The notes under the pieces: model-generated | What the model saw: the letters and a program-made list of their open reading frames with translations, nothing else | Databases searched by the model: none | What the model was told of the DNA's origin: nothing | Shown: positions 20,040-20,750 of the stretch, piece after piece | Position numbering within the stretch: position 1 is the stretch's first letter | Layout: every line of letters begins with the position of its first letter | NCBI RefSeq assembly: GCF_988242995.1 | Contig: NZ_OZ547043.1 | Length of the DNA: 64,000 nucleotides | Strand: one strand, 5' to 3' | Position numbers and translations under genes: made by a program

Positions 20040-20750
20040 TTTGGCAATAAATATCCTCCGGCATAGCCGGAGGTTTTTCAAATGCGCCTATAAGGCTCTC
20101 TTACCAGCCGCGCCCTAACAGGCGCACACGATCTGACATTTGCATCCAACTTCGTTACTTACGGCCCGTAAACGGGCTGCCCGGATAGGGAATCGATAAC
20201 TGCTCTCCCATTTTATCCTCTTCAAGCTGGTGCTTTATGTAATCCTGTATCTTCGCCGTGTTCTTACCCACTGTATCGACGTAGTACCCTCTGCACCAGA
20301 ACTCCCTGTTCCTGTATTTGAATTTCAAATCACCAAACTGCTCGTAAAGCATCAGACTGCTTTTCCCTTTCAGATATCCCATAAAGCCGGATACGCTCAT
20401 TTTGGGCGGGATCTCCACAAGCATATGGATATAATCTGCACAGCATTCAGCTTCCAGAATCCGTACGCTTTTCCACTCACACAGCTTTCTCAAAATACTG
20501 CCTATTGCTCTACGCTTCTCTCTGTAGAACACCTGTCTTCGGTATTTTGGCGCAAAAACTATGTGATATTTACAGTTCCATCGGGTGTGCGCTAAGCTCT
20601 TTTCGTTCCCCATTGGGACCCCCTTTTGATTTCTTGTTTGACACTTGCAGTTGCCAGACCGCAAAGTGTTTTAACAAATCAAAAGGGGTTTTAATAACTG
20701 GCTCAAAGCTGAAAGCTTTCCGGAACCCCCAGCCTAGCTGGGGGTTTTCT
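20040..20750 (-). mobile_element. IS200-like insertion sequence (IS200/IS605 family), about 0.7 kb
   Basis: Contains tnpA (Y1 HUH transposase), an upstream 11-bp stem (cccttttgatt...aatcaaaaggg) around the tnpA RBS and a terminal hairpin aacccccagc-ctagc-tgggggtt at 20724-20747; boundaries are approximate (about 15 nt either way). Confidence 0.8.
20155..20613 (-). CDS. tnpA: IS200 transposase TnpA (152 aa)
   Basis: MGNEKSLAHTRWNCKYHIVFAPKYRRQ... is a near-match to remembered Salmonella IS200 TnpA; expected HUH position reads YIH. Confidence 0.88.
   Translation of the reverse strand: MGNEKSLAHTRWNCKYHIVFAPKYRRQVFYREKRRAIGSILRKLCEWKSVRILEAECCADYIHMLVEIPPKMSVSGFMGYLKGKSSLMLYEQFGDLKFKYRNREFWCRGYYVDTVGKNTAKIQDYIKHQLEEDKMGEQLSIPYPGSPFTGRK

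Follow-up and report, generated by a model that had tools for sequence, protein, structure and literature searches.

IS608 TnpA, the structural model for transposases of the IS200/IS605 family, to which IS200 belongs, assembles its active sites across a dimer, with the HUH motif contributed by one subunit and the tyrosine by the other (PMC3597680). It also serves as the comparison for the catalytic residues, being a protein that is inactivated by mutation of H64, H66, or Y127 (He et al. 2013, PMC3597680) and whose inactive H64A form has been used to make half-dead heterodimers (PMC3597680). For IS200 TnpA itself, the catalytically dead control is Y125F (Ellis et al. 2015, PMC4513863). A natural, functional variant of the HUH motif is found in PCV2 Rep (Glu48/His57/Gln59), which retains the first histidine and has glutamine in place of the second (PMC7826260). 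Movement of IS200 has been reported to be very rare (PMC4513863; PMC12594629), and a mini-IS200, consisting of the ends of the element placed around a marker, was found by Ellis et al. (2015, PMC4513863) to transpose when TnpA was provided in trans. Non-autonomous derivatives that are mobilized in trans are likewise described in the IS200/IS605 family (PMC3597680), and a bidirectional terminator has been located at nucleotides 12-34 of IS200 (PMC4513863).

This article describes a copy of IS200C on the Escherichia coli chromosome, contained in a 64-kb window (64,000 nucleotides, the whole stretch of DNA that was analyzed). The element is the known IS200C of the IS200/IS605 family, and its transposase has a rare missense change that affects a catalytic residue. 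The explanation favored here, which is given a probability of about four in five, is that IS200C has interrupted a DUF4049 gene at its 3' end, carries H61Y at the first HUH histidine of its transposase, and is as a predicted result non-autonomous though otherwise intact; what the element is, where the change lies, and that the remainder is intact are matters of direct observation.

Codon 61 and the HUH motif of the transposase

Translation of the open reading frames places tnpA at 20155..20613 on the minus strand, where it forms a full-length open frame of 152 codons plus a stop. The 152-residue product, which contains ...ECCADYIHMLVEI..., matches the Pfam Y1_Tnp profile (PF01797) with E = 5.2e-37 over profile positions 2-121 of 121, and is matched by solved Y1 relatives in the PDB at 3e-22 to 5e-15. 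In alignments, codons 61-63 (20425..20433, minus strand) encode Tyr-Ile-His in place of the His-Ile-His of the HUH motif: D-Y-I-H sits without gaps on the D-H-I-H of IS608 TnpA (2A6M/2VJV) and of the Sulfolobus relatives (2EC2/2F4F), and the residues that correspond to one another in the window TnpA and IS608 TnpA are Tyr61 and His64 (the first HUH histidine), His63 and His66, Tyr125 and Tyr127, and Gln129 and Gln131. The RefSeq IS200C transposase WP_000526135.1, found in CFT073 and many other strains, agrees with the window TnpA at 151 of 152 residues, with H61Y as the sole difference. Among close homologues, taken as representatives of 90%-identity clusters, position 61 is histidine in 125 of 126 and proline in the remaining one, and tyrosine in none. 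The original prediction, which read Y-I-H where H-I-H was expected and held histidine to be the canonical residue, is borne out on both counts, and alignment to the reference and the homologues revealed neither a reference protein with tyrosine at this position nor an HUH motif elsewhere in the protein.

At the level of DNA, codon 61 (20431-20433) reads TAT on the minus strand (ATA on the plus strand), as against CAT in the reference copies. The changed base is window position 20433, which is T on the minus strand and C in the reference copies, and a GATC site is lost with the change. The other catalytic positions are intact. Codon 125 (TAC; 20239..20241, minus strand) encodes the catalytic tyrosine, aligned with IS608 Tyr127 and kept in 125 of the 126 homologue cluster representatives, and codon 129 (CAG; 20227..20229, minus strand) encodes the glutamine aligned with IS608 Gln131, which we take to be the third metal ligand, and is kept in 122 of the 126. 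With Tyr61-Ile62-His63, the window TnpA lacks the pair of histidines by which an HUH motif is recognized, a departure that bears on the competence of the protein and not on the ancestry of the element. Public records label the tyrosine-bearing protein simply as 'IS200C family transposase'.

The element, its ends, and its insertion site

The element occupies 20046..20758 on the minus strand, a stretch of 713 nt that is shared by IS200C copies inserted elsewhere. Relative to E. coli GF60, in which the site is empty, 711 nt have been gained, and CAAT flanks both edges of the element, so that the placement of the boundaries is ambiguous by 4 nt. Elements of this family insert without duplicating the target site; the CAAT on both sides may be due to chance or may belong to the target or to the end of the element. 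Identity is 99.7% over 707-713 nt to the CFT073 and other annotated IS200C copies. Against the copy at leuD-sgrT in CFT073, 711 of 713 nt are identical, and the only two differences are both in the coding sequence, at refpos 326 (the tyrosine change) and refpos 373 (a synonymous, third-position change). No second Y1 transposase gene or IS200 end was found in the 64-kb window outside this one element.

Subterminal hairpins were found at each end in place of terminal inverted repeats, as is usual for the IS200 group of the IS200/IS605 family, and neither the left nor the right end differs from that of the CFT073 copy. At the left end, a hairpin search identified a perfect 10-bp hairpin (20724..20746, minus strand) that corresponds to the bidirectional terminator of IS200. 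The left-end and tnpA 5'-UTR RNA region (STnc490; the art200/5'tnpA locus) was located by an Rfam search at 20623..20746 on the minus strand, where the match to RF01405 reaches 144.6 bits (gathering score, 56) and covers model positions 1-124 of 124. The right end has a subterminal hairpin with 13-nt arms and a 3-nt loop (20050..20078, minus strand), of the same sequence in the CFT073 copy, and an inverted-repeat search yielded a second inverted repeat there, with 13-nt arms 18 nt apart (20083..20126, minus strand). The CFT073 copy therefore resembles that of the window in its ends, left-end terminator, 5'-UTR RNA region, and 152-residue frame, and differs from it by H61Y, the synonymous change at refpos 373, and the site of insertion.

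That site lies within a DUF4049 gene (yhiJ/yhiK-like; 20734..22260, minus strand), at its 3' end, and downstream of yhiI-yhiY on the E. coli chromosome. Residues 1-502 of the 540 in the DUF4049 product are native, and the final 38 are exchanged for six encoded by the left end of the IS, followed by a stop. A second DUF4049 paralogue adjoins the first in related genomes. E. coli NY1601, in which the site is empty of IS, is 99.9% identical to the window in the chu-ars-gor region (36000-48000) but only 97-98% identical near yhiI-DUF4049 (15000-26000), a pattern that indicates a recombination mosaic. The junction formed by this insertion is also present in three short-read contigs, and because each of these ends at the IS boundary, the presence of further IS200 copies in this lineage is suggested, and with them a probable source of wild-type TnpA.

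The original prediction had also regarded the copy as fixed, a view that these comparisons do not sustain. The ends match those of the CFT073 copy, tyrosine-bearing elements that are 100% identical to that of the window occupy two other chromosomal sites (described below), the ends of IS200 can be transposed in trans, and the contigs with this insertion break at the boundary of the IS.

Distribution of the tyrosine allele and possible routes to its sites

In an exact-protein look-up, TnpA with histidine at position 61 was found on at least 1000 contigs and TnpA with tyrosine on 25, in a search that pre-selects intact frames and so conceals decayed copies. The exact Tyr61 protein is present at eight sites; counting those of the window element and of one decayed copy (L035), there are about ten. 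At two of these, rplT-pheM (L002) and ymgK-ymgL (L004, L007, and L008), the 713-bp element is 100% identical to that of the window; the others given by the look-up are fadR-ycgB (L005), kdsA-ldr (L006), tynA-feaB (L003), a site beside prmA (L010), the plasmid ltrA/bcs site (L011), and one further site (L009). A 33-mer carrying the tyrosine codon matched nothing in a set with one genome for each species, and no intact chromosomal IS200C with the window allele was found in the complete-genome set.

Substitutions chosen as controls were distributed differently. Eleven control substitutions in TnpA, random or type-matched, were found on 0-4 contigs, with the exception of H128Y. This one is present on 22 contigs, all at one site, the yidB-gyrB intergenic region (L018-L022 in E. 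coli and S. sonnei assemblies), and with source names that include Shigella sonnei, as expected of a truly fixed copy passed on by vertical inheritance. Other changes at codon 61 are scarce (H61R and H61N on one contig each; H61Q, H61D, H61L, and H61P on none). Selection for any dead allele was also considered and is unsupported, given that H63Y and Y125C are each found on one contig and Y125H on none.

Several of the sites are also occupied by IS200C with histidine at position 61. At kdsA-ldr, where strain NMBU_W05E18 has a His copy, the Tyr copy differs from that copy by this base alone in 1,913 bp; it is clearly a resident copy that was altered by a point change, not one that was newly inserted. 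At fadR-ycgB, the Tyr copy differs from the resident His copy within the IS by this base and one indel. His copies at rplT-pheM and ymgK-ymgL are 2-7 positions away from the window haplotype. Identical Tyr elements are found at three sites, two of which have His copies in other genomes, an arrangement that bears on whether the element belongs with the trans-mobilized non-autonomous derivatives. As a separate observation, the complete E. coli genomes with IS200C at the rplT-pheM, ymgK-ymgL, kdsA-ldr, and fadR-ycgB intergenic sites (L025-L030) number 16, 159, 255, and 33, respectively, and the rplT-pheM copies include clearly distinct IS haplotypes with 4-7 differences. The recurrence of IS200C at the same insertion points suggests insertion hotspots or exchange between copies.

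The codon-61 T is also carried by a plasmid-borne IS200 relic. A 61-mer of the T allele was found exactly in one of 2,546 matching complete E. coli genome records, a figure that is an undercount since the probe spans refpos 349. When refpos 349 was left out, a 49-mer around codon 61 was found exactly in 134 of 2,194 matching complete-genome records, and all four that were examined represent one relic, situated beside a group II intron in a plasmid bcs operon; the same locus is present in three metagenome contigs. In many E. coli plasmids, the bcsZ gene of the operon for cellulose synthesis (bcs) is disrupted in this way, by the IS200 relic together with a group II intron (ltrA). The relic loci compared were L016 and L036-L038 (pEC20-4B-2-1, pTB211, p2_050613, and S30 plasmid C), together with L032-L034. 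Like the window element, the relic (in pTB211, p2_050613, and pEC20-4B-2-1, for example) has the codon-61 T (ADYIHML) and 373C. Unlike it, the relic is truncated at refpos 500, frameshifted by a 1-nt deletion, and about 3% divergent, has neither the Tyr125 helix nor a right end, and in most copies has 349T. The relic is clearly a dead remnant; it is nonetheless annotated as an intact 168-residue 'IS200/IS605 family transposase' despite the frameshift and the missing region of the catalytic tyrosine.

The presence of the allele at about ten sites runs against the main explanation, as such a spread is unexpected of a dead, immobile copy without recurrent mutation, gene conversion, or trans-mobilization. 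Each of these three is possible for the spread among sites, and the window copy itself may have been mutated in place, been converted, or arrived already mutated. An identical double change is unlikely to have arisen three times independently, and movement of Tyr elements or gene conversion is therefore indicated. If the Tyr61 copies were moved by the TnpA of wild-type siblings, the window copy would have arrived with the mutation already present, and this would agree with the lack of any difference, in 713 bp, between it and the Tyr copies at rplT-pheM (L002) and ymgK-ymgL (L004, L007, and L008) and with the experimental trans-mobilization of IS200 ends (PMC4513863). It would agree as well with the lack of any His copy of the window haplotype among approximately 10,700 IS200 places when 5,426 complete E. 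coli genomes were searched (at best, identity was 99.7%, with two differences), with the examined ymgK-ymgL His copies, which differ from the Tyr copy there at two or more positions, and with the window's own insertion site, at which no IS200 was found in complete E. coli genomes, 5,420 of which have matching flanks. The His copies that occupy rplT-pheM in 16 and ymgK-ymgL in 159 complete genomes, however, allow for in-place change or conversion at those sites; the kdsA-ldr copy is itself an in-place change of one base in 1,913 bp, and IS200 movement is reported to be very rare (PMC4513863; PMC12594629). Mobilization by sibling copies is put forward only tentatively, as a possible route that is not the expected one. 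Conversion by a short tract from the plasmid relic, which would have placed the T in the window and other chromosomal copies, is doubtful. The frequency of the T-allele 49-mer, traced to the relic in all four records examined and present in the three metagenome contigs, would make a candidate donor available, and both 326T and 373C are relic alleles that a single tract (refpos 256-427) would explain, L016 having 349C. Yet 373C is common (1,053 of 2,280 matching records) and so constitutes weak evidence, and 349T, only 23 nt away, is present in most relic copies but absent from the window. The same frequency of 373C in complete-genome records led to the rejection of 326T-373C linkage as proof of common descent.

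It is highly improbable that TnpA with Y-I-H is a functional HUH variant, active enough to move its own element. The exact Tyr61 protein is encoded by intact frames at eight sites besides the window, identical elements are present at three sites, and His63, Gln129, and Tyr125 are all kept, which speaks for this reading; but IS608 H64A is inactive (PMC3597680), tyrosine is found at position 61 in none of the 126 related cluster representatives, and the intact copies come from an exact-protein look-up, which conceals decay. Where intact proteins were not pre-selected, in complete genomes and metagenomes, the T allele is seen only in frameshifted or truncated relics. The chance that the tyrosine codon is an error of sequencing or assembly in the window is smaller still and close to negligible: a one-base difference could arise in this way, but the same allele is found in an identical 713-bp element in four independent public assemblies, and in other haplotypes in several more, and Tyr61 is for this reason taken to be a real natural allele.

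A mutational hotspot at this base was considered and rejected, as no sequence basis for one was found when inverted repeats, hairpins, and GATC were all checked. No inverted repeat that the codon-61 change would perfect was found, and a single-strand hairpin at the changed base was not significant (z = -0.55). Recurrent C-to-T changes at refpos 326 (window 20433) and refpos 349 both affect the C of AGATC, which includes the Dam site, and destroy GATC; in flanking DNA, substitutions at the G or C of GATC numbered 5 of 228 against 2.4 expected, with no clear enrichment. On the tnpA sense strand of IS200C copies, C-to-T changes (about 11) outnumber G-to-A changes (about 4) in a small, unpolarized sample (L002-L017 and L025-L038). 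The sense strand is the non-template strand of tnpA, and in the IS200/IS605 family, it is also the strand that is excised as single-stranded DNA.

Predicted consequences for catalysis and mobility

The H61Y homodimer is most likely catalytically dead, a prediction made by homology because Tyr61 occupies the position homologous to the IS608 residue whose H64A mutant is inactive. The two proteins share a mutation of the first HUH histidine, but H64A is a laboratory alanine mutant, whereas the window allele is a natural tyrosine allele in another family member of about 35-40% identity. PCV2 Rep is similar in being a natural enzyme of the superfamily with a single motif histidine; there, however, the first histidine is kept and the second is replaced with glutamine, a metal ligand, whereas the window TnpA has tyrosine in place of the first, where tyrosine is not known to be a functional alternative. 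With one metal ligand replaced, H61Y homodimers should fail to cleave the ends of the IS, and the copy would be non-autonomous. The hydroxyl of tyrosine can in principle bind metal, and for this reason some residual activity of H61Y is possible. As active sites are built in trans, mixed dimers of wild-type and H61Y subunits would hold one dead site.

Since the ends are intact and supply of TnpA in trans is effective for IS200, wild-type TnpA encoded by another copy in the cell should still be able to act on the element, which should stay mobilizable if a wild-type copy is present. In this it resembles mini-IS200 and the non-autonomous derivatives of the family, which likewise have intact ends, its own transposase being probably non-functional; it differs from mini-IS200 in that its transposase gene is present at full length and altered by just one missense change, and its natural mobilization is a candidate process. 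The left-end RNAs should still be expressed from the window copy.

A wider interpretation, which we consider unlikely, is that Tyr61 copies have spread after the mutation by means of the TnpA of wild-type siblings, and that their product may damp IS200 transposition through half-dead heterodimers, because the active sites of TnpA are assembled across the dimer. If true, a bacterial insertion sequence would have a naturally occurring, full-length allele that behaves as a hitch-hiker or a repressor.

For annotation, the window copy is best read as IS200C with a probable catalytic-null transposase. It provides a small example of the decay of an IS copy that may still be a substrate for trans-mobilization and a source of regulatory left-end RNAs. 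The sole unexpected feature is the occurrence of one missense allele at about ten insertion sites, and should this pattern be due to a dead allele having been moved or selected, it would hold modest interest for work on the regulation of transposons.
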